A model generated the notes under the pieces. The model saw only the letters and a program-made list of their open reading frames with translations. It ran no database searches and was not told the origin of the DNA. A stretch of DNA of 64,000 bases from IMG/VR virus record IMGVR_UViG_3300033074_002003; one strand, written 5' to 3'. The translations under genes and the position numbers were made by a program. This stretch comes from a virus. Within the stretch, counting starts at the first letter, position 1. Every line of letters begins with the position of its first letter. Positions 15,948 to 62,099 of this stretch are shown here, piece after piece.

Positions 15948-16730
15948 GTGAAGAAAGCATACGTATACATTATCACTTGTCACGAAAACGGGAAACAATA
16001 TGTGGGTGTAACAGTAAATCCAACTACGCGCTGGGGTGCGCACATTTACGGTGCATTTGCTGACGGCAGAACGAAATTTGCTCGTGCTATTCGCAAATAT
16101 GGCAAAGATGCGTTTGAGTTCAAGCTCATTATCGGATTTCTAACGCAAGATGATGCATATGAGTTCGAAATTCAGCTGATTCATGAACTTGACACAGTCA
16201 AAAATGGCTACAATTCAAATTACGGCGGCATGGGAGGTGTGTGTCCCTCTGAAGAAGTTCGCAAGAAAATCGCTGATGCAATGCGTGGTCGTGTACCATC
16301 AGATGAAACTAGAAAGAAAATTTCGGATGCGTGTTTACGTCGACGAGATATACTAGCAAAAAATGCTAGTGAACGTTTTCGCGGGAAAACTCTTACAGAA
16401 GAGCACAAGAGAAAGCTTAGTGAGGCAGGAAAAGGTAAGCACTCTGATCGTGTTTTTTCGGAAGAAACGCGCTATAAAATGGGCTCTACAAACCGTGGTA
16501 AGTGTCTTTCTGCAGAACACAGACGAAAAATAAGCGAAGCTGGGAAGGGCAGAAAGCACAGCGCAGAAACAAGAGCAAAAATGCGCCGGAAGGAAACACC
16601 TGAGCAATGCGAACAACGACGTCAATCTGCTTTGGCACGATGGGAAAGAATCAGAAATGAGCGTAACATCAAAGATGTGGAAATATCCACGGACTCGGCA
16701 TCTGGAGGGCAGCAAGTTCCAGAACGGTGA
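15948..16730 (+). CDS. GIY-YIG homing endonuclease with repeated NUMOD3-like DNA-binding motifs
   Basis: N-terminal YVYIITCHENGKQYVGVT...R...H motif; repeats TEEHKRKLSEAGKGK / SAEHRRKISEAGKGRKHS; markedly AT-rich relative to flanks. Confidence 0.85.
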   Translation: MKKAYVYIITCHENGKQYVGVTVNPTTRWGAHIYGAFADGRTKFARAIRKYGKDAFEFKLIIGFLTQDDAYEFEIQLIHELDTVKNGYNSNYGGMGGVCPSEEVRKKIADAMRGRVPSDETRKKISDACLRRRDILAKNASERFRGKTLTEEHKRKLSEAGKGKHSDRVFSEETRYKMGSTNRGKCLSAEHRRKISEAGKGRKHSAETRAKMRRKETPEQCEQRRQSALARWERIRNERNIKDVEISTDSASGGQQVPER

Positions 16731-17502
16731 TCACGATCTAGAATCGGTACCCTTCTCTGAAATCAGAGGAAAACACCTGATCATTGAAGAAAAGCTCGAC
16801 GGTGGAAATTTCGGTATTTCATTTGACAACGACGAAATGCTTTTGCAGTCAAGAGGACATTTTTTGCGTGGCGGTCCTCGTGAAAAAGAGTTTGAAATCT
16901 TAAAACAGTGGGCTGCGACACATGAAGAGACGCTTTTTAGTGTTCTTGGTGAGCGGTATGTGATGTACGGCGAAAACATGACAGCTGCACACACGATTTT
17001 TTACGATTCGCTCCCACACTACTTCATGGAGTTCGACGTCCTCGACAAGGAGACGGGAAAGTTCCTCTCGACACCGGCTCGCGACGCGCTCCTCCGCGAC
17101 GATTGCCTTCCGATGAGGATCGAACCCGTGCGTGTGATGGGCGTCGGGTACGTCGGTTCTCTCACAGAACTCCGCGGGATGGTGGGAAGGTCGAAGTTCG
17201 TTTCCGACGACATCGCTCGCAGTGCCATCGCCGCTGTCGAGAGGTCGCAGTTCGGGAAGCAGTGTGCCACTGAGCTCGAGCTCGATGGGCTCATTCGCTC
17301 GACATTCTATGTGGGACCCACGATGGAGGGACTCTACATCAAATGGGAGGAAGACGGCGAGGTGAAGGGCCGCTACAAATTCGTGCGAGATTCCTTCGTG
17401 AGTCACGTTGCGGGTGCAGAGGAACACTGGCACGACAGGCCTATCGTGCAGAATGGCCTCGTCGAGGGCAGGCTTGAGGCGATGTTTTCGATGGAGACCT
17501 GA
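16675..17502 (+). CDS. ATP-dependent RNA ligase-like nucleotidyltransferase (KxDG motif)
   Basis: KYPRTRHL, motif I EEKLDGGN, motif IV-like EGLYIKWEEDG, motif V-like RYKFVR; start overlapped by GIY-YIG ORF. Confidence 0.55.
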   Translation: MWKYPRTRHLEGSKFQNGDHDLESVPFSEIRGKHLIIEEKLDGGNFGISFDNDEMLLQSRGHFLRGGPREKEFEILKQWAATHEETLFSVLGERYVMYGENMTAAHTIFYDSLPHYFMEFDVLDKETGKFLSTPARDALLRDDCLPMRIEPVRVMGVGYVGSLTELRGMVGRSKFVSDDIARSAIAAVERSQFGKQCATELELDGLIRSTFYVGPTMEGLYIKWEEDGEVKGRYKFVRDSFVSHVAGAEEHWHDRPIVQNGLVEGRLEAMFSMET

Positions 17503-40286: not shown

Positions 40287-40519
40287 GAGATCACTCTCGT
40301 CTCCGGACCCAGCCACCGCCAGACGGATATCACATCGTGGTTGTTCCACAACGATCTCCCCGTGCTCACGTTCCAGAAGAGCCCGGTCCCAAACCATTTA
40401 TTCTCGAGATCGGGTGTGGCGTCAGGATTAGCCAAGCGACCCACGATCACGTAAAGGAAAGAACTGTAGCTTGAACTGTAGACGATGAGGTCGCCCACTC
40501 GAAGTTCGACAGCGCTCAT
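40283..40519 (-). CDS. array-family small protein
   Basis: MSAVELRVGDLIVYSSSYSSFLYVIVG...TRVIS. Confidence 0.55.
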   Translation of the reverse strand: MSAVELRVGDLIVYSSSYSSFLYVIVGRLANPDATPDLENKWFGTGLFWNVSTGRSLWNNHDVISVWRWLGPETRVIS

Positions 40520-40746
40520 CTCACCACCCGTTCCCTCACGTACGTCGACGTGTGTACTCGAGTGCTCTCCCAGCACACGTCCTTAGCATTCCAGAAATAG
40601 AATCCCGTCGCGTCCCAGTACGATCGCGAAGTATCGGAGCTCCGACCCACGATCACATGGATACAGTATTTTCGCACGAGCAGGTCGCCGATTTTGAAGT
40701 TGTATGCATCCTCGTGGAGGATGGCGGGTGACAAATTCTCTCTCAT
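40516..40746 (-). CDS. array-family small protein (ENLSP N-term)
   Basis: MRENLSPAILHEDAYNFKIGDLLVRKY...ERVVR. Confidence 0.55.
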   Translation of the reverse strand: MRENLSPAILHEDAYNFKIGDLLVRKYCIHVIVGRSSDTSRSYWDATGFYFWNAKDVCWESTRVHTSTYVRERVVR

Positions 40747-40937
40747 CTGTAAATCTCGTGGTTCCACCCCGCCCACGTGTGAGCTGATGGCGCCCACACC
40801 GTGGGAGACGAAATTACAGGCGAACAGTAGACGAACCCAGAACACTCTGGCCACTCGTTCTCTCTTAACCCCACGATCACGTAGACGTAATCACGAGAGA
40901 CAAGGAGATCGCCGAGGCGAACGATCGGTTCGCTCAC
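40743..40937 (-). CDS. array-family small protein
   Basis: IVRLGDLLVSRDYVYVIVG...HEIYR. Confidence 0.6.
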   Translation of the reverse strand: MSEPIVRLGDLLVSRDYVYVIVGLRENEWPECSGFVYCSPVISSPTVWAPSAHTWAGWNHEIYR

Positions 40938-41134
40938 CTCACGACCCTCCCGCTAGCGTACTCACGGTACCATCCCGGAAAGTCCGAGAACCACCACCAC
41001 ACGTCGTTAGCCCAGTAGAACCCACTCATGTAGACATTCCCTTCGTGGGGCTCTTTGCTGTGCGGTCCGATCACGACCGCGGTCTCCTCGCCCATCACCA
41101 CGAGGTCCCCGACGCGGAATCTGCTCTCGCTCAC
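40934..41134 (-). CDS. array-family small protein (Trp-rich C-term GFYWANDVWWW; GTG start)
   Basis: FRVGDLVVMGEETAVVIG...GRVVR. Confidence 0.5.
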   Translation of the reverse strand: MSESRFRVGDLVVMGEETAVVIGPHSKEPHEGNVYMSGFYWANDVWWWFSDFPGWYREYASGRVVR

Positions 41135-41334
41135 GAGATCACCTCGTGGTCCCACGATGAGTGAACAACATTGTTTTCAAGCAGCGCACACCCGCCGCCC
41201 TTCACATAGACGATCCCAAATCCAACCGGCCACTCTCCCTCCTGTTTCACGATCACGTAGACATAGCTCTCCGAGATCGCGAGGTCTCCCAACCTGAGGC
41301 GACCGCGAGCCGCGCCCGAATCGGTGTCTCTCAC
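41131..41334 (-). CDS. array-family small protein (GTG start)
   Basis: LRLGDLAISESYVYVIV...HEVIS. Confidence 0.5.
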   Translation of the reverse strand: MRDTDSGAARGRLRLGDLAISESYVYVIVKQEGEWPVGFGIVYVKGGGCALLENNVVHSSWDHEVIS

Positions 41335-41543
41335 GAGATCACCCTCACGATCGCCGGACTGCTGGAGTGAATGCTCTTGTCGACCATCGACCGCGCGCTG
41401 CTCGGGTACCAGAAGCTGAACCCGCGAACGCGGCGTCGCGATTCGTCCGACCACGCGACGACAACATACAACCCGTACTCGCTGATGACTAGGTCACCGA
41501 TCCGGAGGCCGAACCGCCGGGGTGACAAATTCTCATCGCTCAT
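41331..41543 (-). CDS. array-family small protein (ENLSP N-term)
   Basis: MSDENLSPRRFGLRIGDLVISEYGLYVVV...VRVIS. Confidence 0.6.
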   Translation of the reverse strand: MSDENLSPRRFGLRIGDLVISEYGLYVVVAWSDESRRRVRGFSFWYPSSARSMVDKSIHSSSPAIVRVIS

Positions 41544-41740
41544 CGCACGACCCTTCCGCTAGCGATCTCTAGGTCCCACACCGAGTGGCTCGCGTACCAC
41601 CACCACTCGCCGTTAGCCCAGTAGAACCCGCTTATCGAGACACACTCTGCCTCCAGTTCTTCGCCCGAGATTCTGGTCACAACTGCGATCTCGTCGTGCA
41701 GGGCCACGAGGTCGCCCAGGCGGAACCTATTCTCGTTCAC
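41540..41740 (-). CDS. array-family small protein (Trp-rich C-term GFYWANGEWWW, near-duplicate of 40934..41134; GTG start)
   Basis: FRLGDLVALHDEIAVV...GRVVR. Confidence 0.5.
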   Translation of the reverse strand: MNENRFRLGDLVALHDEIAVVTRISGEELEAECVSISGFYWANGEWWWYASHSVWDLEIASGRVVR

Positions 41741-41961
41741 CGGATCACCCGCCTGTCCGTATACTGCAGGTCGTATGTCATCCAGTCGATGTTCACCCAC
41801 GCGCGCTCGCCCCTCAGATAATAGAGCCCGGCCGCCGGCCACACCCTCCGTACTCTGTGGCCGGTGATCACGTAGAGGTAGCGGTTCGTCACGATGAGGT
41901 CTCCCATCCTGTAGCTGAAATCGTCCGCGCAATGTGCGGGTGACAAATTCTCATCGCTCAC
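41737..41961 (-). CDS. array-family small protein (ENLSP N-term)
   Basis: MSDENLSPAHCADDFSYRMGDLIVTNRYLYVI...RRVIR. Confidence 0.6.
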   Translation of the reverse strand: MSDENLSPAHCADDFSYRMGDLIVTNRYLYVITGHRVRRVWPAAGLYYLRGERAWVNIDWMTYDLQYTDRRVIR

Positions 41962-42173
41962 GAGATCACCCTCACGATCGCCGAACTCCCTGGGTGGATG
42001 GCGTGTGTGGTCACCCGCTTCGCTCTGCTGGGTATCACGCCGTTACCGAAGAAGATCCCCAACCCAATAGCGTGTTCGTTCTCTTCCCCGAAAATCACGA
42101 CGTACGACCCGCGTCTCGTGATCACGAGATCACCGACACAGAGGCGACGAGCGGGTGACAAATTCTCTCTCAT
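41958..42173 (-). CDS. array-family small protein (ENLSP N-term)
   Basis: MRENLSPARRLCVGDLVITRRGSYVVI...VRVIS. Confidence 0.6.
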   Translation of the reverse strand: MRENLSPARRLCVGDLVITRRGSYVVIFGEENEHAIGLGIFFGNGVIPSRAKRVTTHAIHPGSSAIVRVIS

Positions 42174-42367
42174 CTCACGATCCTATGGTTCCAGTCGGCG
42201 CGCACCCAACTAACGGTCAGCCAGACAGGAAGCCCGCCCTCTTCTCCCCAGACGAACCCGCAGCATATGGCATGGGTGCTCTCGCCCCACACATCTCCCA
42301 CAACAACGTAGAGGTAACCCATCGAGACGATCAGGTCGCCCACACATATATGACGCTTCTCGCTCAC
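42170..42367 (-). CDS. array-family small protein (GTG start verified as GTGA overlap)
   Basis: VSEKRHICVGDLIVSMGYLYVVVG...HRIVR. Confidence 0.5.
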   Translation of the reverse strand: MSEKRHICVGDLIVSMGYLYVVVGDVWGESTHAICCGFVWGEEGGLPVWLTVSWVRADWNHRIVR

Positions 42368-42600
42368 GAGATCACCCGATCTTCGGGATACAGGTTCTTC
42401 TGGTCGAGCACCGCCCGGGCGAACTCCCAGCGACCCGTGTGGAGGACCCACATGAATCCCATCGCACCGTTGCACGTGAGATTCCACTCGGAGTATCCTA
42501 GGAACACCCACGTCCCGCGCACTGTGACGATCAGGTCGCCGACCCGCAGCGTAGAATTCCGCACTGGGACTCTGCACAATTCGGCCGTCCCGTCACTCAC
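42364..42600 (-). CDS. array-family small protein (GTG start)
   Basis: LRVGDLIVTVRGTWVFLG...DRVIS. Confidence 0.5.
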   Translation of the reverse strand: MSDGTAELCRVPVRNSTLRVGDLIVTVRGTWVFLGYSEWNLTCNGAMGFMWVLHTGRWEFARAVLDQKNLYPEDRVIS

Positions 42601-42863
42601 GCCCACCGGAATACCCTGCTTCCCCGACACGCATCAAGCCCGAGAATGTGAAATGACGTCCACTTCCAACACCCGTACCAGAGGTAGAACCCGCGCCCGA
42701 GTCCCGTATCGGTCACAACCAGGATCTCACACTCGTTGACGAGGAGGTCGCCGACACGGACACCGGTCTCGCCCGCGAGAATTGTCCCACGTGCACCGAA
42801 TAATTCGGCCTCCGCGCTCTCGTGAGGGGGTTGGGGATACTTGTCCATGGCTTGCAGACTCAC
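42597..42863 (-). CDS. array-family small protein, first gene downstream of the regulatory gap (ends RVFRWA)
   Basis: VRVGDLLVNECEILVV; GTG or internal ATG start. Confidence 0.45.
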   Translation of the reverse strand: MSLQAMDKYPQPPHESAEAELFGARGTILAGETGVRVGDLLVNECEILVVTDTGLGRGFYLWYGCWKWTSFHILGLDACRGSRVFRWA

Positions 42864-42870
42864 GAGAGTG

Positions 42871-42925
42871 GAATTGGGTGAGGGAATTTGAGCGAGGGTG
42901 ACGGGAGGGGGAATTGAGGGTGGGT
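42871..42925 (-). repeat. three tandem about 14-bp G-rich direct repeats (GGGAATT(T)GAG...GG) immediately upstream of 42597..42863
   Basis: ggaattgggtgagg / ggaatttgagcgagg / ggaattgagggtggg. Confidence 0.45.
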
Positions 42926-43032
42926 CGCATTTGCCACTCTATCACACACTGCAAGGAGTTGCACAGTCCCCTCTGTGCGAGAGAAACATCAGCGCTCCTG
43001 ATTCTGCACCCAAGAAAACTCACGGTGGCCTC

Positions 43033-43060
43033 CGAAAAATACCCGATCTCGGGTTTTTCG
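43033..43060. terminator. bidirectional intrinsic terminator-like hairpin (AAAAAT-ACCCGATCTCGGGT-TTTTT)
   Basis: GC stem CCCGA/TCGGG flanked by A-run and T-run; lies in 640-bp non-coding gap downstream of 43505..43702. Confidence 0.45.
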
Positions 43061-43242
43061 ACACACAGTGGGCCCTCTTTCGTACTCGCAGTCGTGTTTT
43101 TCGGTGCCCAACTCCACTCAGTCGATGTTGACCGCAGATTGTCGCTTGAGTGTGCGCAGTCGATCTCGATTCGACAGAGAAATCTCGGTGGGCGAGGCGC
43201 AACGGGTCGACCCGTTCACTTCCGATTGTCGTGAGTCTGCGC

Positions 43243-43431
43243 CTCAGTTGGGTCTCCCCGAGCAGGGGGGTAGCACCGGTGTCGAGACATGTGTTCTGTC
43301 CCTGCACATCACGAGTGGGAGTGGGCCCGCGGAGAGGGCGGGACGACCCGAGATTTTGCGCCTCGAGGCCCGTGAAATCTGCGGTGTGCACGCCTGCGCT
43401 CACCTTGGGTCTCCCCGAGCAGGGGTAGAAC
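43243..43431. repeat. two copies of a roughly 24-bp direct repeat TTGGGTCTCCCCGAGCAGGGG(G)TAG about 165 bp apart (each contains hairpin CCCC-GAGCA-GGGG)
   Basis: copies at about 43243-43266 and 43408-43431 in non-coding gap. Confidence 0.5.
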
Positions 43432-43504
43432 GCGGGTCGTCGGGAAGCGGGACGCGCCTCAGGAAGTCGAAAGCCACGAGGGTTGTCGATGCGATGGGGA
43501 CGCG

Positions 43505-43702
43505 TCATTGGGCGATCACCTCGAGCATTGTCGTGTGTACCACCAGCAGTCCTTCCAACCGCGGGTCTGAATCGTATACTTTGACGAGGCGGTGCGTGCG
43601 GCCGTCGAAGTGGAACAGGTGATTGTCGATCACGACAGCGAGTGTATGACTGCTCCACGTGAGATCGCACAGGTCACCGATCCTGAACTCGCGAGCGATC
43701 AT
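43505..43702 (-). CDS. array-family small protein (ends LEVIAQ)
   Basis: MIAREFRIGDLCDLTWSSHTLAVVI. Confidence 0.5.
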   Translation of the reverse strand: MIAREFRIGDLCDLTWSSHTLAVVIDNHLFHFDGRTHRLVKVYDSDPRLEGLLVVHTTMLEVIAQ

Positions 43703-43911
43703 CGTCCCACCAGAACCCTAATAAGGAGACCTGACGTGCAGTTGTCAAAGTATGCGGCGTGAGGTCCGGCCCAAAATGCTGTAACAACCGCGCGACTCGA
43801 GAAAAAGTCATCTTTGCTGTGGTGGACGACGACTCCAACCTCGCGCGTAGGTTCGAAATAGATGAGGTCACCGATGTGGCACTCACCAGCTCGGATTCGC
43901 GGGTGACTCAT
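43699..43911 (-). CDS. array-family small protein
   Basis: MSHPRIRAGECHIGDLIYFEPTREVGVVV...; ATGA coupling both sides. Confidence 0.5.
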   Translation of the reverse strand: MSHPRIRAGECHIGDLIYFEPTREVGVVVHHSKDDFFSSRAVVTAFWAGPHAAYFDNCTSGLLIRVLVGR

Positions 43912-44102
43912 CTTCCGCGCAGCTCCACGGGGAGCGTCCACAATCCCGCACCGCGCCTGTCGAACAGGATGCTGTCGAGGTTAACCCAAACACACTCACT
44001 CCGCATGCTGTCTTTTCGAATGACGATACCGAGCATGCTAAAGTACGTGAAGAGGTCTCCCACTCGGAGTTCGTGGATACTCATCGATGTGGGTGCCATC
44101 AC
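43908..44102 (-). CDS. array-family small protein
   Basis: LRVGDLFTYFSMLGIVI. Confidence 0.5.
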   Translation of the reverse strand: MMAPTSMSIHELRVGDLFTYFSMLGIVIRKDSMRSECVWVNLDSILFDRRGAGLWTLPVELRGR

Positions 44103-44323
44103 CTGATCACCCGCGTGATCTCGTCGCTGTAGATCAGTTGTCGGTTGTTCACGTAGTCACCCATCACGAAGTAGCACCCGATCGCTTCGACGGAGTCATA
44201 TGCTGCTGTCACAACAGCGAGCCCGTGGCGCGGCGTCCTCGCGCTCGCCGGCGACTGGGCAGTGATGAAGGTGACGCTAGGGACTGTGCGCGTGAGGATG
44301 AGGTCTCCCACGCGAGGCTTCAC
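44099..44323 (-). CDS. array-family small protein (GTG start)
   Basis: VKPRVGDLILTRTVPSV...TRVIR; GTGA overlap. Confidence 0.5.
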   Translation of the reverse strand: MKPRVGDLILTRTVPSVTFITAQSPASARTPRHGLAVVTAAYDSVEAIGCYFVMGDYVNNRQLIYSDEITRVIR

Positions 44324-44532
44324 GCGATCCTCGCCATCTCGTCGTGTTCGAAGCACAGGTCGGTCTCCCAGCGATGTCGCGGGTGTATCCAGAGAACCGC
44401 ACGGCTCCCGTCACCTTTGAATTCTGATTTGGGTGCGAGGACGATGCCGAGAGCACTGCTGAACACAGCAATGTGCTCCTCGACGATGACGAGATCTCCT
44501 ACTCTCACGTCTTCGGGACGACTGTACCTCAT
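44320..44532 (-). CDS. array-family small protein (ends MARIA)
   Basis: VRVGDLVIVEEHIAVFSSALGIVL. Confidence 0.55.
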   Translation of the reverse strand: MRYSRPEDVRVGDLVIVEEHIAVFSSALGIVLAPKSEFKGDGSRAVLWIHPRHRWETDLCFEHDEMARIA

Positions 44533-44538
44533 GGTCCC

Positions 44539-44868
44539 TCACATGAAGAGGTGAACAACCCACAGACACGCGAGGGTGAAGGCACACCAGCCCAGCCGCC
44601 ATGCCCATTCCAACCCCCAGTCGGCCGCTTGTGCATCCCGCAGTGAGGTTGAGAGGGGCACCATGCGGGTGAGTAGGGCTAGGCCTAGGATGTGGGCGGG
44701 CCTCAGGAAGGGGGCCCCGAGGGGGACGATGAACCACTTCCACAGGACCGTGCACGTCCACCCGTAGGCGAGGCCCTCGAGGGCGAGGGCCATCAGGAAA
44801 ATGGGGACGGCGCGGGCGACAGAACCCTGCCCCGCGCCGTCACTCGGTGTCTCTTCCCCTTCGCTCAT
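44539..44868 (-). CDS. small membrane protein (2-3 TM) embedded in array
   Basis: MSEGEETPSDG then hydrophobic helices; ATGA overlap with upstream gene stop. Confidence 0.4.
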   Translation of the reverse strand: MSEGEETPSDGAGQGSVARAVPIFLMALALEGLAYGWTCTVLWKWFIVPLGAPFLRPAHILGLALLTRMVPLSTSLRDAQAADWGLEWAWRLGWCAFTLACLWVVHLFM

Positions 44869-45167
44869 TCCTCGCGCTCCACCCACCTCGCGGTGTACAC
44901 TGCGTCCTCGAAGATGCACCGGGCTCTGATCACCTGGCCCGATCGCTCGTACGCGTACGCTCCGAGGAGACGGACGTCGTGCCCGGCGTGCAGGGGTCGC
45001 AGGACGGCGTCTCCGCCGATGATCCGGACGACGACGTAGGGCGTCTCTACGTTGAGGATGGGTGCCTCGAAGATGCGACCCTCCTCGTAGACGTCATCGC
45101 ACAGGAGGAGAAGGTCGCCCACCGCGGGCTGCGACTCACTCCGGGGGTGCGGCGCCACGGCGTCCAC
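44865..45167 (-). CDS. array-family protein, first member (GTG start; AVGDLLLLCDDVYEEG; divergent C-term)
   Basis: family motif; upstream AAGGGAAAGGG purine tract; start uncertain. Confidence 0.4.
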   Translation of the reverse strand: MDAVAPHPRSESQPAVGDLLLLCDDVYEEGRIFEAPILNVETPYVVVRIIGGDAVLRPLHAGHDVRLLGAYAYERSGQVIRARCIFEDAVYTARWVEREE

Positions 45168-45444
45168 CCTTTCCCTTCTTGGGAGCGGACTTCGCGTCCT
45201 CGCGAAGGGACGCTTCGAACGCCTTCCCTTTCTTCGCGGCGACCTCTTCGAGCTTGATGCGCGCGCGCTGTCGGGCGGCGCCCACGCCCGCACCGAGCCT
45301 CGAGTCGAGCACCGCGAGCTGCTCCTTGGGAGACAGCTGTGCCCACGCCTCGTTCCTCGCGATCGCCTCCGCGCGCTTCTCTGCGCCGCCCACCGGGTTG
45401 TGGCGTCGCCCTCCGATGCCCGGGTACTTGCGAACTCTCGCCAT
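45136..45444 (-). CDS. hypothetical basic protein
   Basis: strong SD GGAGG 8 nt upstream of ATG MARVRKYPG; Lys/Arg-rich C-term. Confidence 0.5.
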   Translation of the reverse strand: MARVRKYPGIGGRRHNPVGGAEKRAEAIARNEAWAQLSPKEQLAVLDSRLGAGVGAARQRARIKLEEVAAKKGKAFEASLREDAKSAPKKGKGGRRGAAPPE

Positions 45445-45618
45445 ATCTTCGTCCTCCCCACCCAGTGGGTGGTTCACGGGTTGTCACGTCCTCAGGTGGA
45501 CGCGGTGCTCCACGCGGGTTATGAGCCCGCGTTTGTCCTCGGGAGGGGACTTCACACATGTGTGGAGCTGCCCACCCTTTCCGGGTGGGGATTCTCTTGC
45601 TGTCCCGGAGGGGGACGA

Positions 45619-46314
45619 TCAGCCGTTCGCGGCCTTGTCCTCGTCCGACTCGTCGGTGATGTCGAGCTCCGTGACGCCGTCGTTGTAGTGCTCCACCTCG
45701 GACGAGAAGAGGTACACGGGGTGCTTCACGGTGGCGAGCTGCACGAAGATGCGGATGCGGTTCGCCCGGGTGACGGTGCCCACCTGGCCGATGAAGCGCG
45801 GGTTGCCGGACGCGGCGATGATCTTCACGCGGTCGCCCTCCTTGATGGGACAGGCCTTCGCGTTGCTCGAGGCGATGATGGTAGCGCGCTTCCGAGCGTC
45901 GAACGCGATGTGGGTCGCGAGGACGTTCATGTCACCCGTCGAGAGCGCGCGGGCGAGCTCGAGGAGCTCGACGACGGCGGCCGAGGGCGTCGGGAGGCCC
46001 TTGCCGTAGGCCTCGACCTTCGCGAGGTGGGCGTCGACCTTCTCCTTGGGAGCCTTCTTCTCGCGCTCCTTCTTGGGAGCCTTCTCCTTGCCCTTCTTCG
46101 CCTCCGCGGGCGCCTCGCCCTCGGCCGTCGTCTCGGTGTTGGTGTCGGGCTTGTCGTCTCCCGTCGCATCACCGTTCGTCTCGTTGTCGGGCTTCTCGTT
46201 CGACGCGTTCTCGAGGTTGGTGTCGACGACCTTGTCGTCCTTCGCCTCGGCGGTCGTGTCGGACGCGTTCTTGTTCTTGTTCTTGCCCGACTTCTTGTTC
46301 GCGGTGTTGCTCAT
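45619..46314 (-). CDS. protein with Lys/Glu/Asp-rich disordered N-terminal half and KOW-like C-terminal domain (KEGDRVKIIAASGNPRFIGQVGTVTR)
   Basis: KOW consensus GD.V.V..G...G..G.V; motif related to array-family core. Confidence 0.5.
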   Translation of the reverse strand: MSNTANKKSGKNKNKNASDTTAEAKDDKVVDTNLENASNEKPDNETNGDATGDDKPDTNTETTAEGEAPAEAKKGKEKAPKKEREKKAPKEKVDAHLAKVEAYGKGLPTPSAAVVELLELARALSTGDMNVLATHIAFDARKRATIIASSNAKACPIKEGDRVKIIAASGNPRFIGQVGTVTRANRIRIFVQLATVKHPVYLFSSEVEHYNDGVTELDITDESDEDKAANG

Positions 46315-46490
46315 GTTCGATCTCCTCCGGGCGACGCGGGCTCACTGCCCGCGCTCCCAATTGTTTGACACAGTACACTACACTGCTCACAGTTTACACG
46401 CTGCTCGGCAACTATTTGCCGATTGGTGCACACTGTGGGGACTTTTCCCACCCTCTTCCCGTACTATATCACGGTGATATGGTGGGAACA

Positions 46491-48475: not shown

Positions 48476-48775
48476 ATGGCCATCACGGACAAGCCCAAGT
48501 ACGGTTCGAAGAGCAGCCCCGATCCCGAGAAGCGCCACTTCTTCAAGTGGGCCGGCGAGAAGTCGGGCGAGGGCATCGGCACCTGCATGCACTGCGGCCT
48601 GCAGATGAAGTTCGAGGAGAACGGCGCGCGGGGCGGGAAGCACCGCGTGTACAAGAAGAAGGGCGAGCGCGCCTGGTCCGAGAAGGAGACCCAGTGCGTC
48701 GCCCGCTCGCGGTCGCTCGCCCTCGCGGCGAAGGAGCCGAAGCCCGCCAAGAAGGCGGCGAAGAAGGCCGCCTGA
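48476..48775 (+). CDS. small basic Cys/His protein (putative zinc-binding), paralog of 58764..59039
   Basis: shared H.FKW.....G.GIG.C.HC...LKF.ENG.RGGKHR.Y; Lys/Ala-rich tail. Confidence 0.55.
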   Translation: MAITDKPKYGSKSSPDPEKRHFFKWAGEKSGEGIGTCMHCGLQMKFEENGARGGKHRVYKKKGERAWSEKETQCVARSRSLALAAKEPKPAKKAAKKAA

Positions 48776-48830
48776 GACCTCGCGGAGACATCCTGAACAA
48801 CCCGTGCGGGTGACGTATAGTTATCCCCAC

Positions 48831-48915
48831 GGGTTGGATGCTCTAACGGTAGGGCAACGGGTTGTAGCCCCGTCAGACCTCCGGGTCTAAGCAGGTTCGA
48901 TTCCTGCCCAACTCA
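48831..48915 (+). tRNA. tRNA-Tyr (GTA), type II with long variable arm
   Basis: acceptor GGGTTGG/CCAACTC, anticodon loop TTGTAGC, variable stem AGACC/GGTCT, T-arm GCAGG-TTCGATT-CCTGC. Confidence 0.7.
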
Positions 48916-49036
48916 CAAAAAAAGCGGTGAACACCCGGGCTGTGCGCCATATACTATCTCTTGCGGGGTAGTGTACAGAGCACGTGCAGCCTCATAAGCT
49001 CACAGACCGAGGGGCAGCTCCCGGCGACCGCACCCA

Positions 49037-49681
49037 ATGTTGATTGTATGTGACGAGTGTGGAAAAGAATACCCTCCCAAAGGTATCGCCACACATAAAT
49101 GGCGAACTCACGGTGATGGAATTGGGTTCAAGCCAACGGGCAACAAGCGTGTGGTTTGGAATAAGGGCCTTACTAAAGACTCTGATATTCGTGTCGCTGT
49201 AGGAGCTGAAAAGCTTTCTGTCACGATGACACGACTCTGTCAAGAAGGCAAAATCAAACCACCATTGATGTCAGTAGAGCAACGACAAAAATTGTCTCAG
49301 CGGCAATCACTACATAACTCGGGCGGTAAATCACGATGGTATGAAGTCAGTGGACAAAAGGTGCAAGGACGCTGGGAACGTGATTTTGCACTAATGATGT
49401 TGAAGCTGGGCATCACATGGATCAAACCCAAGATCGGAAGAGATATTTGGCGCTACACTCGACTAGATGGCGTGATTAAATCATACACACCAGACTTCTT
49501 CTTAGAAGAACTCTCGTTGTTCATAGAGATCAAAGGTTTCTGGTGGGGTGCTGATCGCATAAAGATGAAGCTTGTTCAAGAACAATTTCCTGAACGTAAG
49601 ATAAAAATTATCGAGAGAGAGCTATATAATAAGCTCTTGCTTGCTGAAAGCAAATCTGATTTTCTTGGGATGTTAGCTTAG
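49037..49681 (+). CDS. AT-rich putative PD-(D/E)XK-type (homing) endonuclease with N-terminal Cys/His zinc-finger-like motif
   Basis: CDECGKEY...HKWRTHG; C-terminal PDFFLEELSLFIEIKG fits PD-x(n)-ExK; low GC versus flanks; 3-prime end overlaps tRNA-Phe. Confidence 0.45.
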   Translation: MLIVCDECGKEYPPKGIATHKWRTHGDGIGFKPTGNKRVVWNKGLTKDSDIRVAVGAEKLSVTMTRLCQEGKIKPPLMSVEQRQKLSQRQSLHNSGGKSRWYEVSGQKVQGRWERDFALMMLKLGITWIKPKIGRDIWRYTRLDGVIKSYTPDFFLEELSLFIEIKGFWWGADRIKMKLVQEQFPERKIKIIERELYNKLLLAESKSDFLGMLA

Positions 49682-49738
49682 ACGGTTAAGCGATCGGTTG
49701 AAACCCGGTAGTCAAGGATTCGAGCGCCTTACATCCCA
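49667..49738 (+). tRNA. tRNA-Phe (GAA)
   Basis: acceptor GGGATGT/ACATCCC, D-arm GCTT..AAGC, anticodon loop TTGAAAC. Confidence 0.8.
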
Positions 49739-49745
49739 CTAATTT

Positions 49746-49817
49746 CGCTGTGAGGTCGAGTGGTGAGACGTCCGCTTCATAAGCGGTAGGATGCGGGTTC
49801 GAGTCCCGCCACAGCGA
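49746..49817 (+). tRNA. tRNA-Met or Ile2 (CAT)
   Basis: acceptor CGCTGTG/CACAGCG, anticodon loop TTCATAA, T-arm GCGGG-TTCGAGT-CCCGC. Confidence 0.8.
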
Positions 49818-49832
49818 CGGTCCGAAAGATAC

Positions 49833-49912
49833 GCGCTCGTAGTCTAAAGGATAGGCAGCGGCTTCCTAAGCCGAGACGAAAGTCAATGTAGGTTCGAGTC
49901 CTACCGGGCGTG
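49833..49912 (+). tRNA. tRNA-like, candidate anticodon CCT (Arg) with 13-nt variable arm (GAC-GAAA-GTC)
   Basis: acceptor GCGCTCG/CGGGCGT (2 GU), T-arm GTAGG-TTCGAGT-CCTAC; D-arm weak. Confidence 0.4.
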
Positions 49913-49963
49913 CTGAGATTCGAGTGAGAGGAAGCTTCGAACCTCCCACTCGTTTTCTCTTAC

Positions 49964-50359
49964 GGGGGTGACAGGTTTCGACGGAGGAAAGGAGTCCCAC
50001 CTGCGAGCGAGCAGCAATCAGTGACGACTGCTCTGAAAGATGGCACTGACGCTTAAACGCGAACGATAACGGCACTTCTCTCGCCCTCGCGGCCTGAGCG
50101 TCCCCCGTAGCAAGAGATGAGCACTGTAGCTCTCGGGACGTCATCTACTGTGCATCTATGTGGGCGGCACCGGTCCGCTCTCAGAATTTCACGGTGTAGG
50201 AGCGTGCGGGTTTCGTTCCCCGGGCGCTCCGAAGTAGTGAGAACGAATGTGCGCCAGCAGAGGACTGTCGGACCGACGGTGATAGGTGAAATTCACATAC
50301 GCTCGTAGACGGTGAGATGAACTGACTTTCGGACGAGGGTTCGATTCCCTCCACCTCCA
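49964..50359 (+). ncRNA. ssrA: tmRNA (SsrA); tag ORF 50059..50097 encodes ANDNGTSLALAA
   Basis: 5-prime GGGGGTGACAGGTTTCGACGG, 3-prime GGACGAGGGTTCGATTCCCTCCACCTCCA with G3-U70 Ala identity pair; canonical AND...LAA tag. Confidence 0.85.
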
Positions 50360-50462
50360 CTGTAGTGAGCTCTGTGAGGAATGCAGAGAGCCCGTGACTA
50401 TCACGGTGCAACATGGTAAAGAGTTGTTAGGCGACGGTGAGTCGCGGTAACAAGGGAGCATC

Positions 50463-51668
50463 ATGGACATCCATACTTTCAAGCGTGTCGTCAAGTACCT
50501 CGAGCCGACCAAGACCTCGGACGGGAAGGTGATGAGGCCCCCGGCGATCATGATCACCGGCAGACACGGCATCGGGAAGAGCGGTGTCATGAGGCAGATC
50601 GCGGCGGAGGTCTGCGGGCTGCCCCTGATCGATAGGCGCATCGGGCAGATGTGCGAAGGCGACCTCGTGGGTCTCCAGAAGATCGACGGCGAGTTCACGA
50701 AGTTCCTCCCGGTCGAATTCATCCACCGCGCCTCCAAGGAACCGCACTTCCTCTTCTTCGACGAGGCGAACCGCGGCACGAAGGAAGTGATGCAGGTGAT
50801 GTTCCAGCTCGTCCTCGACTACGAGCTCAACGGCGTCGTGCTCCACCCCGATACCCGCATCGCCATCGCGGTGAACGAGGGGTCCCAGTACACGGTGACG
50901 CAGATGGACCCGGCCCTTCGCGACCGGTTCTTCTACGTGGAGCTCGAGCCCACGGTGGACGAGTGGATCGAGTGGGCGAAGGTGGAAGGCCTGCGCCCGG
51001 AGATCGTCTCCTACGTCACGCAGCATCCCGCGCACCTCGACACGCCCGCGGACACCAGGATCGCGGGTCGCACGCCCTCGCGCCGCGCGTGGCACATGTT
51101 CTCCGCTCCCCTCGATCGCATGATGATGCAGGACGGTTTCGCTGTCGAGAAGGACGAGTGCGTGTTCGAGCTCTTCTCGCTCGCGAGCGGGTTCCTGGGC
51201 GCCGCGGTGGCGGCCGACTTCAAGGAGTACGTGCTGGAGAACTGCAAGCGTCCCACCGCGGAAGACGTCCTGAACGACTGGCCCACCACCCGCGCCCGCC
51301 TCGCTCGCATGGGCGGCAACCCGTGGATGCACATCATCGACACCGTCTCAGACTGGGCGAAGAACGGCCGGATGACCGACGCACAGCGCGACATGTTCTG
51401 TGACATGTTCAACGAGGCGCCCGCCGAGTACCGCATGGCGCTCTGGCAGAAGATCGCGCAGATGCGCGTCGTCGAGGACGAGGGCACCCTGCACAACATC
51501 GTGCTCATCCACTCGAAAATCAAGCGGAAGCTCGTCGCCGCGATGATCGGCGAGGAGGAGGCGGAGAAGCGGTTCGCGGAGGACGAGGAGCGCTACCAGA
51601 AGTTCATGGCCGAGGAGGCCGCACGCGCCGCCGAGGCGGAGGGTGGCAATGTCGCTGCTGGAGCCTGA
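50463..51668 (+). CDS. MoxR-like AAA+ ATPase (AAA_5)
   Basis: Walker A ITGRHGIGKS, Walker B LFFDEANRG; SD AAGGGAG. Confidence 0.7.
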   Translation: MDIHTFKRVVKYLEPTKTSDGKVMRPPAIMITGRHGIGKSGVMRQIAAEVCGLPLIDRRIGQMCEGDLVGLQKIDGEFTKFLPVEFIHRASKEPHFLFFDEANRGTKEVMQVMFQLVLDYELNGVVLHPDTRIAIAVNEGSQYTVTQMDPALRDRFFYVELEPTVDEWIEWAKVEGLRPEIVSYVTQHPAHLDTPADTRIAGRTPSRRAWHMFSAPLDRMMMQDGFAVEKDECVFELFSLASGFLGAAVAADFKEYVLENCKRPTAEDVLNDWPTTRARLARMGGNPWMHIIDTVSDWAKNGRMTDAQRDMFCDMFNEAPAEYRMALWQKIAQMRVVEDEGTLHNIVLIHSKIKRKLVAAMIGEEEAEKRFAEDEERYQKFMAEEAARAAEAEGGNVAAGA

Positions 51669-57494: not shown

Positions 57495-57502
57495 GGTATA
57501 CA
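57495..57502 (+). promoter_or_regulatory. -10 GGTATACA, 8 nt before ATG 57511 (leaderless)
   Basis: motif class. Confidence 0.35.
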
Positions 57503-57510
57503 CTGTCGAT

Positions 57511-57810
57511 ATGGCAAAGCGAATCGATGTCCTCGTTGGTAACGCGACCCTGCTCGTGCGTGAGGTCCCGGGGGAGCACTCGACCCTGAAAGACGACGGC
57601 GAGCGGGCGGAAAACCGCCTCTTGCGTGCTGTGGCGAGGTGGTACGGCTTTCCCGTGAAGGGCGTGTGGCGGTGCGGTACCCTCGTGGCGATCGACATCG
57701 ATTGCGGTGACGACTACGAGCTCTGCTCGCAGTGCAACCGCGATCACGAGTACGATGGGCACGGTCCCGAGTGCGCCCGTGATATCAATGACGCGGTGGA
57801 GTATAACTGA
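57511..57810 (+). CDS. hypothetical protein
   Basis: MAKRIDVLVGN; Cys-rich C-term. Confidence 0.45.
   Translation: MAKRIDVLVGNATLLVREVPGEHSTLKDDGERAENRLLRAVARWYGFPVKGVWRCGTLVAIDIDCGDDYELCSQCNRDHEYDGHGPECARDINDAVEYN
57797..57807 (+). promoter_or_regulatory. extended -10 TGGAGTATAAC, 6 nt before ATG 57814 (inside 3-prime end of previous CDS)
   Basis: motif class. Confidence 0.4.
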
Positions 57811-57813
57811 GTC

Positions 57814-58077
57814 ATGGACAAGGCAACCACCCAGAAGTTCCTCGAAGCGTGGATCGCGTACACGGGCTTCTCGCCCGGTAGTGTGAAGGACATCCGCGTC
57901 GAGGAGGACCCGATGTACAAGGGTACGTACGCCGGCCGCGTCGATGTGGGCGATCCGAAGCCCTTCGACTTCATGGTCACCGGGTGCAACCCGGTCACGA
58001 TGACGACCGACGCGATCGCCGACCTCATCGAGGAGTGCGAGTTCGTCGCGTTCCCACCTCGCGTGCGGGGTCGGTGA
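57814..58077 (+). CDS. hypothetical protein
   Basis: ORF track 87 aa. Confidence 0.45.
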   Translation: MDKATTQKFLEAWIAYTGFSPGSVKDIRVEEDPMYKGTYAGRVDVGDPKPFDFMVTGCNPVTMTTDAIADLIEECEFVAFPPRVRGR

Positions 58078-58274
58078 TGCCCCTCGAGGCCATCACGCTC
58101 GCGCAACTGCGGGATCGCAACCGCGGCGCGTTCAGTCGCATGCCCGCGAAACTCGCTCGCGCCTCCTTCCTCACGGACGGGAAGAACGTGTCTGCCACCC
58201 TCCCGGAGTCCACCCACGTATGGACGGGCCGGAAGTGGGTGGTCGCGCGTGATAGCGGATCGGAAACGAAGTAG
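58077..58274 (+). CDS. hypothetical small protein
   Basis: TGATG overlap; MPLEAITLAQL. Confidence 0.35.
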   Translation: MPLEAITLAQLRDRNRGAFSRMPAKLARASFLTDGKNVSATLPESTHVWTGRKWVVARDSGSETK

Positions 58275-58277
58275 AGT
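58271..58277 (+). promoter_or_regulatory. -10 GTAGAGT with leader SD GGAGAGAG before ATG 58297
   Basis: parallels 56318 element. Confidence 0.35.
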
Positions 58278-58296
58278 GGGAAGTAGGAGAGAGCAC

Positions 58297-58674
58297 ATGG
58301 ACCCGAAACTCGGAATCGAAATCACCAACGAGGACATCACGTTCGCCGACGGGATCGACGACTCCGACGGCTGTCGCCCACCGCTCGCAGAAGAGGTCGA
58401 GCTGCACGCGTGCACTCGCGATCCCGACTGGCTCCTCGCCCTCCTCATCGCGGAGATCGCGCGTGGCGCTCTGAAACATGGCGATCCCGACGTGACACCT
58501 CGCCAGATGCGGTGGATCGTCGCCACAGAGATCGGTGCACTCGAGAGTGCACTTGCGGAACACGTTCGAGACTTCTACACGCGGGTGAACGACGATATCG
58601 GGCGTGTCAAGGCCCACAACACGAGCTTCTCCGGGGGGACGAAGGGGGAGGAAAAAGAATGCGAAGACGCGTGA
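58297..58674 (+). CDS. hypothetical protein
   Basis: MDPKLGIEITNED; 125 aa. Confidence 0.45.
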   Translation: MDPKLGIEITNEDITFADGIDDSDGCRPPLAEEVELHACTRDPDWLLALLIAEIARGALKHGDPDVTPRQMRWIVATEIGALESALAEHVRDFYTRVNDDIGRVKAHNTSFSGGTKGEEKECEDA

Positions 58675-58763
58675 GGTTCGGCGCACGGTGAGATAAAACT
58701 AGATCATCAGGTGGGAACAACCACCGAGAACACCAACCAAGTTACGAAGGAAGAGAGAACACC

Positions 58764-59039
58764 ATGTCCAAGAGCACCAAGACCACTGCCAAGAAGCCCG
58801 TCACCCGCTACGGCGCGAAGACCGCCCCCGGGAAGGGTCACTCGTTCAAGTGGGAGGAGGCCCCCGGCGTCGGCATCGGGGTCTGCAGCCACTGCACCGC
58901 GAAGCTGAAGTTCGTCGAGAACGGCCCGCGCGGCGGCAAGCACCGCATGTACTGGCATGCCGGTGTCGACGGGGCGAAGGGCAAGTGGCTCCCGGAGGAG
59001 CCCAAGTGCAAGCGCGAGCCGGCCTCCAAGGCGGCCTGA
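58764..59039 (+). CDS. small basic Cys/His protein, paralog of 48476..48775
   Basis: conserved HSFKWEEAPGVGIGVCSHC...KFVENGPRGGKHRMY; leader hairpin GGTGG-GAACAA-CCACC; SD GAAGGAAGAGAG. Confidence 0.55.
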   Translation: MSKSTKTTAKKPVTRYGAKTAPGKGHSFKWEEAPGVGIGVCSHCTAKLKFVENGPRGGKHRMYWHAGVDGAKGKWLPEEPKCKREPASKAA

Positions 59040-59051
59040 CGCACTCCCACT

Positions 59052-59085
59052 GTCGGGTGGCGGCTCACACGGGTCGCCACCCGAC
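59052..59085 (+). terminator. strong 13-bp GC-rich hairpin (GTCGGGTGGCGGC...GTCGCCACCCGAC) without U-tract
   Basis: 12 nt after stop of 58764..59039, immediately upstream of tRNA-Met. Confidence 0.5.
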
Positions 59086-59095
59086 ACGCGTCTCA

Positions 59096-59169
59096 GGGCA
59101 CATAGCTCAAGAGGTTAGAGCTGTCGCCTCATATGCGATCGGTTCCGGGTTCGAGTCCTGGTGTGCCCA
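59096..59169 (+). tRNA. tRNA-Met or Ile2 (CAT)
   Basis: acceptor GGGCACA/TGTGCCC, D-arm GCTC..GAGC, anticodon loop CTCATAT, T-arm CCGGG-TTCGAGT-CCTGG. Confidence 0.8.
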
Positions 59170-59658
59170 CTGTAACAGCCCGTTGTCTAGTTCCCAATGG
59201 TGATTTGGACACAGGATTGCGATATTCGATTCAGCGTTGACGACGCTAAGTCGTGTGTCGAGATCAAAAGACGCAATTCCTTTGATGTGTGCAAATTCGA
59301 CGTGTTTGTCGTATGCACAAATCATACATTTGCGAGGAAGATGATCGTTCCACCGACGAGCGTAATAACGAACTGGTGACCACTTCTGATGTGAACTGAC
59401 ATTTTCTCTTTTGCACTTGTCAGCATAATATCGAAGCGTGAGATTGCGCGCGCGTCTGTCACTGTCCAGACATTCAACGACGCACTTGCTACAGAATCGT
59501 GTTTTGTTCGTTAGAGTACGTTTGAACTCGACTTTACACTCGTGACAAATACGTGTCGGTGCTCTCTTTGGACTGTTGAAGAGAGCGGCACACTTGCAGT
59601 TACAGAATTTGCGTGCTAGATTAGTCAGGGGTGTGTTACAGTATACGCACTTTTTCAC
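59107..59658 (-). CDS. HNH homing endonuclease (AT-rich)
   Basis: Cys-rich N-term; HNH core CMICAYDKHVEFAHIKG...NIAILCPNHHWELDNG; ORF 3-prime end runs into tRNA-Met. Confidence 0.75.
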   Translation of the reverse strand: MKKCVYCNTPLTNLARKFCNCKCAALFNSPKRAPTRICHECKVEFKRTLTNKTRFCSKCVVECLDSDRRARNLTLRYYADKCKRENVSSHQKWSPVRYYARRWNDHLPRKCMICAYDKHVEFAHIKGIASFDLDTRLSVVNAESNIAILCPNHHWELDNGLLQWAHQDSNPEPIAYEATALTS

Positions 59659-59723
59659 TCTCTGACTTTACAGATATTTTGTCATTTGTAACGGTGTGCC
59701 CACACGTGTTCCCAAGTTCGCTG

Positions 59724-62014: not shown

Positions 62015-62088
62015 GTGCTCGTAGCTCAGTTGGATAGAGCAGCGGCCTTCTAAGCCGCCGGTCGCCCGTTCGAGTCGGGCCGGGCACA
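62015..62088 (+). tRNA. tRNA-Arg (TCT)
   Basis: acceptor GTGCTCG/CGGGCAC, D-arm GCTCAGTTGGATAGAGC, anticodon loop CTTCTAA, T-arm GCCCG-TTCGAGT-CGGGC. Confidence 0.8.
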
Positions 62089-62099
62089 CGGAGAAAAAG

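Follow-up and report, generated by a model that had tools for sequence, protein, structure and literature searches.

What is a nuclease gene doing between two transfer RNA (tRNA) genes of a phage, and why does its stop codon lie inside the second of them? The question is raised by a 64,000-nucleotide (nt) stretch of viral DNA, IMG/VR record IMGVR_UViG_3300033074_002003, which was analysed whole and is called the window below. Within it, a 214-residue open reading frame (ORF), ORF214, sits between tRNA-Tyr and tRNA-Phe in an island of RNA genes. A sequence-only reading had taken ORF214, an HNH gene at a second tRNA-Met and a GIY-YIG gene for three families of homing endonucleases. Our analysis leads to a related view: the tRNA and transfer-messenger RNA (tmRNA) clusters of this jumbo phage probably host free-standing selfish endonuclease genes, among which ORF214 belongs to a family that is coupled to tRNA-Phe. 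We put the probability of this reading at about 0.7. For the HNH and GIY-YIG genes the earlier interpretation largely holds; for ORF214 it names the right kind of element, but the evidence comes from the family rather than the locus. The three features at the centre of the question are as follows.

49037-49681, plus strand: ORF214, a 214-residue nuclease with 43% G+C (GC) (Pfam PF05367, family alignment and AlphaFold2 model)
48831-48916, plus strand: tRNA-Tyr(GTA), type II with a long variable arm (ARAGORN), the upstream neighbour of the ORF214 module
49667-49739, plus strand: tRNA-Phe(GAA) (ARAGORN; Rfam, 52.4 bits)

ORF214 is laid out as a C2H2 zinc finger (C5, C8, H20 and H25; nt 49049-49111), a NUMOD3-like helix and a domain resembling T7 endonuclease I, in which the catalytic-type residues are E114 (49376-8), D153 (49493-5), E164 (49526-8) and K166 (49532-4). 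The TAG stop codon (49679-49681) is inside tRNA-Phe, and the 15-nt overlap of the two genes (49667-49681), already pointed out from the sequence, is confirmed: the first 15 nt of the tRNA supply the final four residues of ORF214 and its stop.

Assignment to a nuclease family was made by several routes. ORF214 scores 32.3 bits against Pfam Phage_endo_I (PF05367; gathering threshold 29.1), a model matched by 43 of the 44 sequences in the family alignment; relatives were drawn from a search of 5.8 billion proteins, 92 of them 200-285 residues long. E114, P152-D153, E164-x-K166, G167 and K176 are invariant in this alignment, and C5, C8, H20 and a WNKGLTK motif nearly so. Searched against the PDB, the family profile finds T7 endonuclease I (1m0d, E 9e-13), aligned through the catalytic motifs (ED...PDF...ETKG), where we take E20, D55, E65 and K67 (T7 numbering) to be the catalytic residues. 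The N-terminus of the profile matches C2H2 zinc fingers (2i13, E 7e-6). Pfam, profile and family alignment agree on the PD-(D/E)XK-like motif and N-terminal Cys/His finger that had been read from the letters, and the 1m0d match bears out the nuclease identity of 49037-49681. Ten of the 44 members contain NUMOD3, a motif by which homing endonucleases bind DNA, and many match C2H2 models. Pfam gives no GIY-YIG match in either ORF214 or the HNH ORF.

The AlphaFold2 model of ORF214, a confident one (predicted local distance difference test score, pLDDT, 93.5), runs from the finger through two helices to a nuclease domain of alpha/beta type. Its best Foldseek matches in the PDB are the catalytic domain of I-Bth0305I (top) and T7 endonuclease I; 3cae, 2pfj and 1fzr are returned with probabilities of 0.85-0.99, but with E-values of 0.014-0.05 and root-mean-square deviations >20 Å. 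The crystal form of endonuclease I is domain-swapped and the ORF214 model a compact monomer. Compared with the sister lineage L026 (~86-91% identity to the window), ORF214 shows 15 synonymous and 8 non-synonymous differences, a ratio of non-synonymous to synonymous rates (dN/dS) of 0.14. ORF214 encodes a working protein; its catalytic core is intact and under purifying selection.

The link to tRNA genes emerges from the family. Our survey took in 42 distinct long-form loci with flanks of 1.5-4 kb, drawn from metagenome and IMG/VR contigs, from genomes of huge phages and from the window itself. tRNA genes were present in the flanks of 41, the exception (L047) having tmRNA only. No tRNA was nearby in 37 of 47 loci recovered through short partial matches, which are mostly canonical endonuclease I of the podophage type. 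tRNA-Phe is the immediate neighbour in 26 of the 42 long-form loci: in 19 the ORF stops 9-34 nt into a tRNA-Phe(GAA) on the same strand, in two a convergent tRNA-Phe follows the ORF by <=35 nt, and in five tRNA-Phe precedes it by 6-193 nt. The usual stop is the TGA or TAA of the tRNA-Phe D-loop 'GGTGA/GGTAA', which leaves the protein tail ...GELVW. Given that tRNA-Phe makes up 10% of tRNAs in the surveyed loci, an adjacency of 26/42 has a binomial P of ~6e-16 (~6e-9 for either side), shared ancestry ignored. One subclade abuts tRNA-Leu in the same manner.

Three features of these loci argue against simple linkage. The tRNAs upstream of family ORFs vary (His, Leu, Pro, Asp, Asn, Ala, Arg, Ser, Lys and Tyr), the linked tRNA-Phe genes are of several sequence types, and the nearest homologue of ORF214 (P0003, 52% identity) is placed 28 nt downstream of a tRNA-Phe, so the link is kept on either side of the gene. 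Within a type, the acceptor and anticodon stems of these tRNA-Phe genes vary yet stay complementary, which suggests functional tRNAs. One homologue ends in the same tail type as ORF214 (…GLLA) and lies directly against a tRNA-Phe-like sequence of the type seen in the window, suggesting that the nuclease and its tRNA-Phe travel together, and two loci (L065 and L066) have a duplicated tRNA-Phe beside the ORF. The nuclease domain has at least 554 relatives in IMG/VR, and the long-form members run to dozens; databases label them 'endonuclease' or 'hypothetical'. As judged from this distribution, the ORF214 family is a tRNA-array specialist that is coupled to tRNA-Phe and behaves as a selfish element.

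There is evidence of gain, loss and decay within the family. An IMG/VR scan for the 5' half of the GELVW-type tRNA-Phe yielded 25 loci. Fifteen carry the full ORF; three (L148, L151 and L152) retain only its final 12-40 codons between the previous tRNA and tRNA-Phe; seven (L145-147, L166, L161/164 and L162) have no trace of it. The empty loci include related arrays with a Thr-Phe spacer of 21, 50 or 700 nt. After the intact tRNA-Phe, a tRNA 3' fragment ending ...GGCAGCACCA occurs in seven ORF-bearing loci and in all three remnant loci (together L143, L148, L151, L152, L155-L158, L160 and L163), and in none of the empty sites. This orphan piece, comprising T arm, acceptor strand and CCA, can be aligned to the final (3') third of a second tRNA-Phe type. 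It looks like the footprint of a cassette that would have replaced part of a resident tRNA-Phe.

A second polymorphism is found in cultured phages. Nine records of the T4-like Acinetobacter Lazarusvirus, including AC4, Apostate, AM101, DLP2 and AB-Navy97, have the family member AC4_155, which the records call 'putative endodeoxyribonuclease I' or 'hypothetical'. In about 50 Lazarusvirus relatives, whose flanks are 95-98% identical, the ORF is missing and an intact tRNA(CAT), annotated Ile or Met, is present. Aligned with Abraxas, the AC4 insertion falls between nt 36 and 37 of tRNA(CAT), splitting the anticodon loop. The split gene lies in L124:1630-2380 (L124 is AC4, L126 Abraxas). Its insert is 0.69 kb of ORF only, with <50 nt of non-coding sequence; the TAA stop of the ORF reaches into the start of the 3' tRNA half. 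Relative to the intact allele, the two halves of the split tRNA show compensatory T-stem changes. Rfam finds no ribozyme or group I intron in the AC4 insertion. A T4-late-promoter-like sequence, TATAAATA, lies within a hairpin ahead of the ATG of the insert.

Strict coupling to one isotype, with an ORF that overlaps the 5' end of the tRNA, could also be expected of an enzyme that acts on RNA, either processing its own tRNA-Phe precursor or cutting the tRNA-Phe of the host, with a resistant substitute provided by the phage. Some PD-(D/E)XK enzymes do cut RNA, and the tRNA-splicing endonuclease and influenza PA are among the weak fold matches of ORF214. However, the nearest relatives in sequence and fold are DNA enzymes, the C2H2 and NUMOD3 modules bind DNA, members of the family also lie beside tRNA-Leu and inside a tRNA(CAT) gene that is probably destroyed by the insertion, and tRNA-Phe of the same type occurs without the ORF. 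We regard action on RNA as very improbable.

Presence and absence of a nuclease gene are seen directly at the second tRNA-Met of the window. The window belongs to a population of near-identical metagenomic contigs (99-100% identity, exact-protein look-ups), one of which is 305,889 bp long; the source is thus a jumbo phage of ~306 kb. It is uncultured: a megablast search of 50,697 phage records gave no cultured-phage DNA relative of either locus, and distant blastn matched tRNA-Tyr only. The features at this site are as follows.

59096-59170, plus strand: tRNA-Met(CAT), copy 2 (ARAGORN, Rfam)
59107-59658, minus strand: HNH endonuclease ORF, 183 residues (Pfam HNH_2, PF13391, 23.9 bits against a threshold of 21, residues 111-162)
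59171-59703, no strand: HNH insertion, 533 bp (BLAST and alignment against L003 and others)

The HNH ORF also matches PHROG 1271 (E 6e-8). It has no stop codon of its own: its last 21 codons and the stop are antisense tRNA-Met, through which its final 64 nt run, an overlap that the sequence-only reading had allowed for. The HNH domain terminates at the insert boundary. The 533 bp consist of 522 bp of unique sequence (59171-59692, TGTAAC at both ends) and a repeat copy of the 11-bp tRNA 3' end GGTGTGCCCAC, whose first copy is at 59160-59170 and second at 59693-59703. An alignment with L003 runs to 59170, the final base of tRNA-Met, and restarts at 59693. Contigs at least 99% identical differ by the presence or absence of these 533 bp at the tRNA-Met 3' end. 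The HNH gene is a genuine mobile indel, for which the phage population remains polymorphic. Between two alleles of the gene there are 13 nucleotide differences (10 synonymous, 3 non-synonymous), which places the protein under purifying selection. Gene callers skipped the ORF, and exact-protein look-up found no called gene for it on record. All seven IMG/VR homologues lie in tRNA arrays, as do those of Erwinia phage Ep030 and Streptomyces phage TomSawyer, and three homologues adjoin a tRNA-Met(CAT).

The tRNA-Met beside the insertion comes in two alleles that differ by ~9 substitutions, all of them in the anticodon stem, at loop position 38 or in the variable loop; both retain the stem. The window (59096-59170) reads GTCGC-CTCATAT-GCGAT where L003 (20060-20134) and L017 read CCCGT-CTCATAA-ACGGG, with flanks otherwise 99.8% identical. 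The pair could be a micro-conversion tract or reflect selection against an anticodon-arm nuclease. The contigs lacking the HNH gene have allele 1 (L003, L017) or allele 2 (L016, L018-L020, L023-L025), and those with it (the window, L005/L021, L014 and L015/L022) all have allele 2. The anticodon-stem allele was considered as an HNH immunity or co-conversion marker and rejected, seven HNH-less contigs having the HNH-type allele. Polymorphism in the population sample peaks in the 57.5-59.7 kb block, which fits a reported tendency of nuclease genes to lie at the borders of genetic exchange among phages (PMC10448857). By single-nucleotide polymorphism (SNP) density, the maximum at 57500-59700, adjoining the HNH site, amounts to 22-34 differences per kb per contig in three of the four 500-nt bins from 57.5 to 59.5-60.0 kb; a second high-SNP block starts directly after the tmRNA, at 50500-51500.

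ORF214 in its own lineage behaves otherwise, and several observations weigh against reading it as a selfish homing gene. It is fixed, with no difference over 645 nt in 18 of 18 population contigs, and L026, at ~89% identity, has it at the same place with 96.4% identity. Every informative contig has ORF214, and no empty site was found in this lineage by routes through the AAA-ATPase neighbour (IMG/VR and JGI metagenomes, where two relatives end before the site), the exact tRNA-Tyr 3' half (IMG/VR), an exact tRNA-Arg(CCT) segment (metagenomes), and exact ORF214, its 97% variant and the upstream 99-residue protein. The monomorphic valley around ORF214 is not distinctive: diversity is patchy across the whole population sample, and the valley was rejected as the mark of a sweep. 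At the level of the protein, Pfam does not detect NUMOD3 in ORF214 itself, the Foldseek E-values are weak (0.009-0.05), and T7 endonuclease I is a structure-specific resolvase rather than a sequence-specific enzyme. No obvious Shine-Dalgarno sequence was read before the ATG. Purifying selection on ORF214 would fit a benefit to the phage just as well, and the family loci are not phylogenetically independent. As for the HNH gene, it is not strictly linked to the tRNA-Met anticodon-stem allele, and its deletion between the 11-bp repeats is indistinguishable from insertion.

ORF214 is therefore not a recent or random insert in this lineage. The sequence-only reading was right about its position between tRNA-Tyr and tRNA-Phe and wrong in so far as it implied a recent insertion event, the gene being fixed in all relatives found. 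It had also named identical positions with normal GC content as the sign of ancient residence; ORF214 does keep its position, and its GC stays abnormal. Around the gene in L026 the spacer is 99% and tRNA-Phe 100% identical, compared with 85-89% for neighbouring protein genes. A repeat search around ORF214 revealed no target-site duplication. In this lineage the element is fixed and remains under purifying selection; support for its mobility comes from the wider family (tRNA-Phe coupling, empty sites, remnants and the Acinetobacter polymorphism), not from the local locus.

Base composition bears on the age of these genes. In 600-nt windows, GC averages 59.0% (standard deviation 4.5%), with local flanks of 62-67%. 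ORF214 (43.2%), the HNH insert (44.4%) and the GIY-YIG gene at 15948-16730 (44.7%) are the only three regions below 49% in the 64 kb, so that three nuclease families (GIY-YIG, HNH and T7 endonuclease I-type PD-(D/E)XK) coincide exactly with three GC troughs. The earlier statement that the nuclease genes fall far below the backbone is upheld by the GC profile; its figure of ~63% describes the local flanks only, the backbone being ~59%.

One could suppose from the fixation of ORF214 that the low-GC ORFs are immobile old residents, that the HNH polymorphism is a deletion, and that tRNA arrays merely tolerate junk. The ORF214 position is indeed shared by lineages ~11% apart, the 11-bp direct repeat could mediate deletion of the HNH gene, and the same tRNA-Met allele occurs in HNH-less and HNH-bearing genomes. 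Neutral tolerance nonetheless leaves unexplained an isotype-specific adjacency to tRNA-Phe that occurs on both sides of the tRNA. ORF214 and the HNH gene are both under purifying selection, the expected drift towards genome GC has not happened, and in AC4 the insert interrupts a tRNA whose adjoining halves depart from the intact allele in a way that suggests joint transfer with the nuclease gene. Long residence without mobility is, on balance, distinctly improbable.

The more serious competitor is domestication: ORF214 may serve the phage as a junction resolvase or debranching enzyme like T7 gp3, or as a SegB-like driver of tRNA-gene amplification and exchange against tRNA-cutting host defences. 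This would suit a gene that is identical in all population contigs, has a dN/dS of 0.14 against a diverged relative and keeps the catalytic core of T7 endonuclease I. SegB offers a precedent in amplifying tRNA-Tyr to escape Septu (PMC13096335), and tRNA-Phe is duplicated beside the ORF in L065 and L066. Yet the family is dispensable, being absent in most Lazarusvirus relatives, with remnants and empty sites elsewhere; ORF214 is 16 GC points under its genome; it occupies a tRNA leader with neither its own stop codon nor a clear ribosome-binding site; and the added zinc-finger and NUMOD3 modules are typical of homing endonucleases. Domestication seems unlikely to us, if the least unlikely of the alternatives.

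Two further nuclease or nuclease-like genes were noted, one of them in the window and the other in the sister lineage.

15948-16730, plus strand: GIY-YIG and NUMOD3 endonuclease (Pfam GIY-YIG 1e-13, NUMOD3 4e-13)

This gene matches PHROG 314 'homing endonuclease' (6e-45). ARAGORN places it outside the tRNA island and in no tRNA cluster. It overlaps the start of an RNA ligase gene (PF09414, 4e-28; 15948-17502), the 5' part of which is also GC-poor. In L026, a 782-bp insertion of 47% GC (L026:11323-12104, equivalent to window position 50361) stands directly after the tmRNA 3' end and is absent from the window. It holds a Cys-rich ORF of 241 residues (48% GC) with weak DUF559/MTES_1575 matches (E ~0.02-0.03), a match to PHROG 559 'HNH endonuclease' (1e-10) and matches to PHROG homing endonucleases; its stop codon is in the conserved flank. 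ORF214 (tRNA-Phe), the HNH gene (antisense tRNA-Met) and this 241-residue ORF all borrow their stop codons from conserved flanks, which marks the ends of the RNA genes in the island as repeated landing sites.

How such a gene might spread can be outlined from its anatomy, with cleavage specificity, homing and the effect on expression all inferred. An ORF214-type enzyme would cut the tRNA-Phe loci of co-infecting phages that are without the nuclease gene, and repair of the break from a nuclease-bearing genome would copy the nuclease gene together with the adjacent tRNA-Phe. The conserved tRNA gene would thus be both target and portable homology for recombination. A site in the tRNA-Phe 5' leader would be harmless to the phage, since RNase P should trim the leader away. 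Since the stop codon is inside the mature tRNA, RNase P processing would also turn ORF214 transcripts into non-stop messenger RNAs (mRNAs) and could hold nuclease levels low. The tmRNA gene is 283 nt downstream; a connection between it and ORF214 non-stop messages is speculation.

A fuller version of this scheme, on which we would not quite bet at even odds, is that ORF214 represents an unrecognised class of free-standing homing endonuclease on a T7 endonuclease I scaffold, homing to tRNA-Phe of large phages with offshoots at tRNA-Leu and tRNA(CAT), carrying a replacement tRNA-Phe and throttled in its expression by RNase P-made non-stop mRNA. More speculative still is that a resolvase-type domain exploits the four-way-junction geometry (cloverleaf or cruciform) of tRNA-gene DNA.

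The remaining RNA genes of the window, and a promoter-like element, are listed here.

48928-48955, plus strand: promoter-like element TGAACA-16-TATACT (consensus scan only; the spacer is 59% GC, like the backbone)
49746-49818, plus strand: tRNA-Met(CAT), copy 1 (ARAGORN, Rfam)
49833-49913, plus strand: tRNA-Arg(CCT), 81 nt with an enlarged variable region (ARAGORN, Rfam)
49964-50360, plus strand: tmRNA, tag ANDNGTSLALAA (ARAGORN; Rfam RF00023, 96.8 bits)
62015-62089: tRNA-Arg(TCT) (ARAGORN, Rfam)

ARAGORN and Rfam recover tRNA-Tyr, tRNA-Phe, tRNA-Met(CAT), tRNA-Arg and the tmRNA where they had first been placed by reading. As an Rfam tRNA, tRNA-Tyr scores a borderline 29.7 bits, with tRNA-Sec as an alternative at 32.8 bits. 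tRNA-Phe has the lowest GC of the island tRNAs (52%) and, by eye in the Rfam alignment, A53 opposite G61 in place of the usual G53-C61 pair. The first tRNA-Met differs from its L026 counterpart (L026:10710-10782) by five substitutions, which cluster at the upper end of the anticodon stem and within the variable loop. In tRNA-Arg(CCT) the variable region has ~10 extra nt, unusual for Arg, and 81 of 81 aligned positions are the same in L026. Rfam detects no intron families in the window and no signal of a degraded tRNA or intron in the 48917-49036 spacer. The promoter-like element in this spacer could be a driver of ORF214 and the tRNA operon; a near-twin (TGAACA, 16 nt, TATAGT) lies ahead of tRNA-Tyr at 48794-48821.

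Other parts of the window have peculiarities of their own. Two paralogous zinc-ribbon-like proteins of 99 and 91 residues (48476-48775 and 58764-59039; 41% identity, E 3e-17, no family annotation) are each encoded directly 5' of a tRNA that precedes a nuclease gene. On the minus strand at ~40500-46400 there are ~25 tandem small genes (~50-110 residues, mostly 63-88) with no Pfam matches, and their number and order vary between strains that are otherwise 99% identical (L003-L005:1-6400; BLAST breaks at 43464/43487).

The ORF214 family adds to phage tRNA clusters a second, structurally unrelated and apparently undescribed nuclease family. Nucleases of tRNA clusters have recently been tied to escape from bacterial tRNA-cutting defences (PMC13096335). 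If the ORF214 enzymes are site-specific, they would explain part of the shuffling of tRNA arrays between large phages, offer a new programmable-looking architecture (zinc finger, NUMOD and endonuclease I) and provide a natural case of tRNA processing that controls expression of a nuclease. The idea is open to direct test in cultured Acinetobacter phages, some of which have the gene and others not. Our full-text searches, whose coverage leaves out much subscription-journal literature, found no endonuclease-I-like homing family and no tRNA-Phe-linked homing endonuclease.

The tRNA gene region of phage T5 carries the HNH endonucleases F-TflI, II and IV. Likened by description only, that region resembles the present one in having HNH genes scattered among phage tRNA genes; in the window the HNH gene is convergent with tRNA-Met and takes its stop codon from the antisense strand of the tRNA. 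Closer to ORF214 in fold are I-Ssp6803I and I-Bth0305I, homing endonucleases of the PD-(D/E)XK superfamily (PMC3239194, PMC3943268), the former in a tRNA-fMet gene and the latter the best structural match of the ORF214 model. Both reside in group I introns, whereas Rfam finds no ribozyme in the window or the AC4 insertion; neither is among the PDB matches of the family profile at E <=1, and the EDxHD motif is not among the family invariants.

T7 endonuclease I (gp3; 1M0D, 1FZR, 2PFJ) shares with ORF214 the E/D/E/K residues and a YTPDF...E-x-KG motif. In contrast to ORF214, gp3 is a single-domain protein of ~149 residues that forms a domain-swapped dimer, resolves four-way junctions without sequence specificity, and is a core gene away from tRNAs in T7-like podophages. 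ORF214 lies in tRNA arrays and has ~100 extra N-terminal residues of DNA-binding modules.

That selfish nucleases inhabit phage tRNA clusters is known from T4 SegB, a free-standing GIY-YIG homing endonuclease whose gene lies among the clustered tRNA genes of T4; it cleaves tRNA-gene DNA, and neighbouring tRNAs are passed on along with it (PMC2330249). SegB also amplifies tRNA-Tyr against Septu, recognises a generic T-psi-C motif and is associated with tRNAs of all isotypes (PMC13096335). The ORF214 family resembles it as a free-standing nuclease gene in a phage tRNA cluster that is polymorphic among related phages. It differs in its fold, a T7-endonuclease-I-like PD-(D/E)XK domain with a C2H2 finger where SegB is a GIY-YIG enzyme without isotype preference, and in being tied to tRNA-Phe, or in one subclade tRNA-Leu, with a reading frame that ends inside the tRNA. 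What appears to be new in the ORF214 family is this nuclease scaffold, the fidelity to tRNA-Phe and the placing of the stop codon inside a tRNA.

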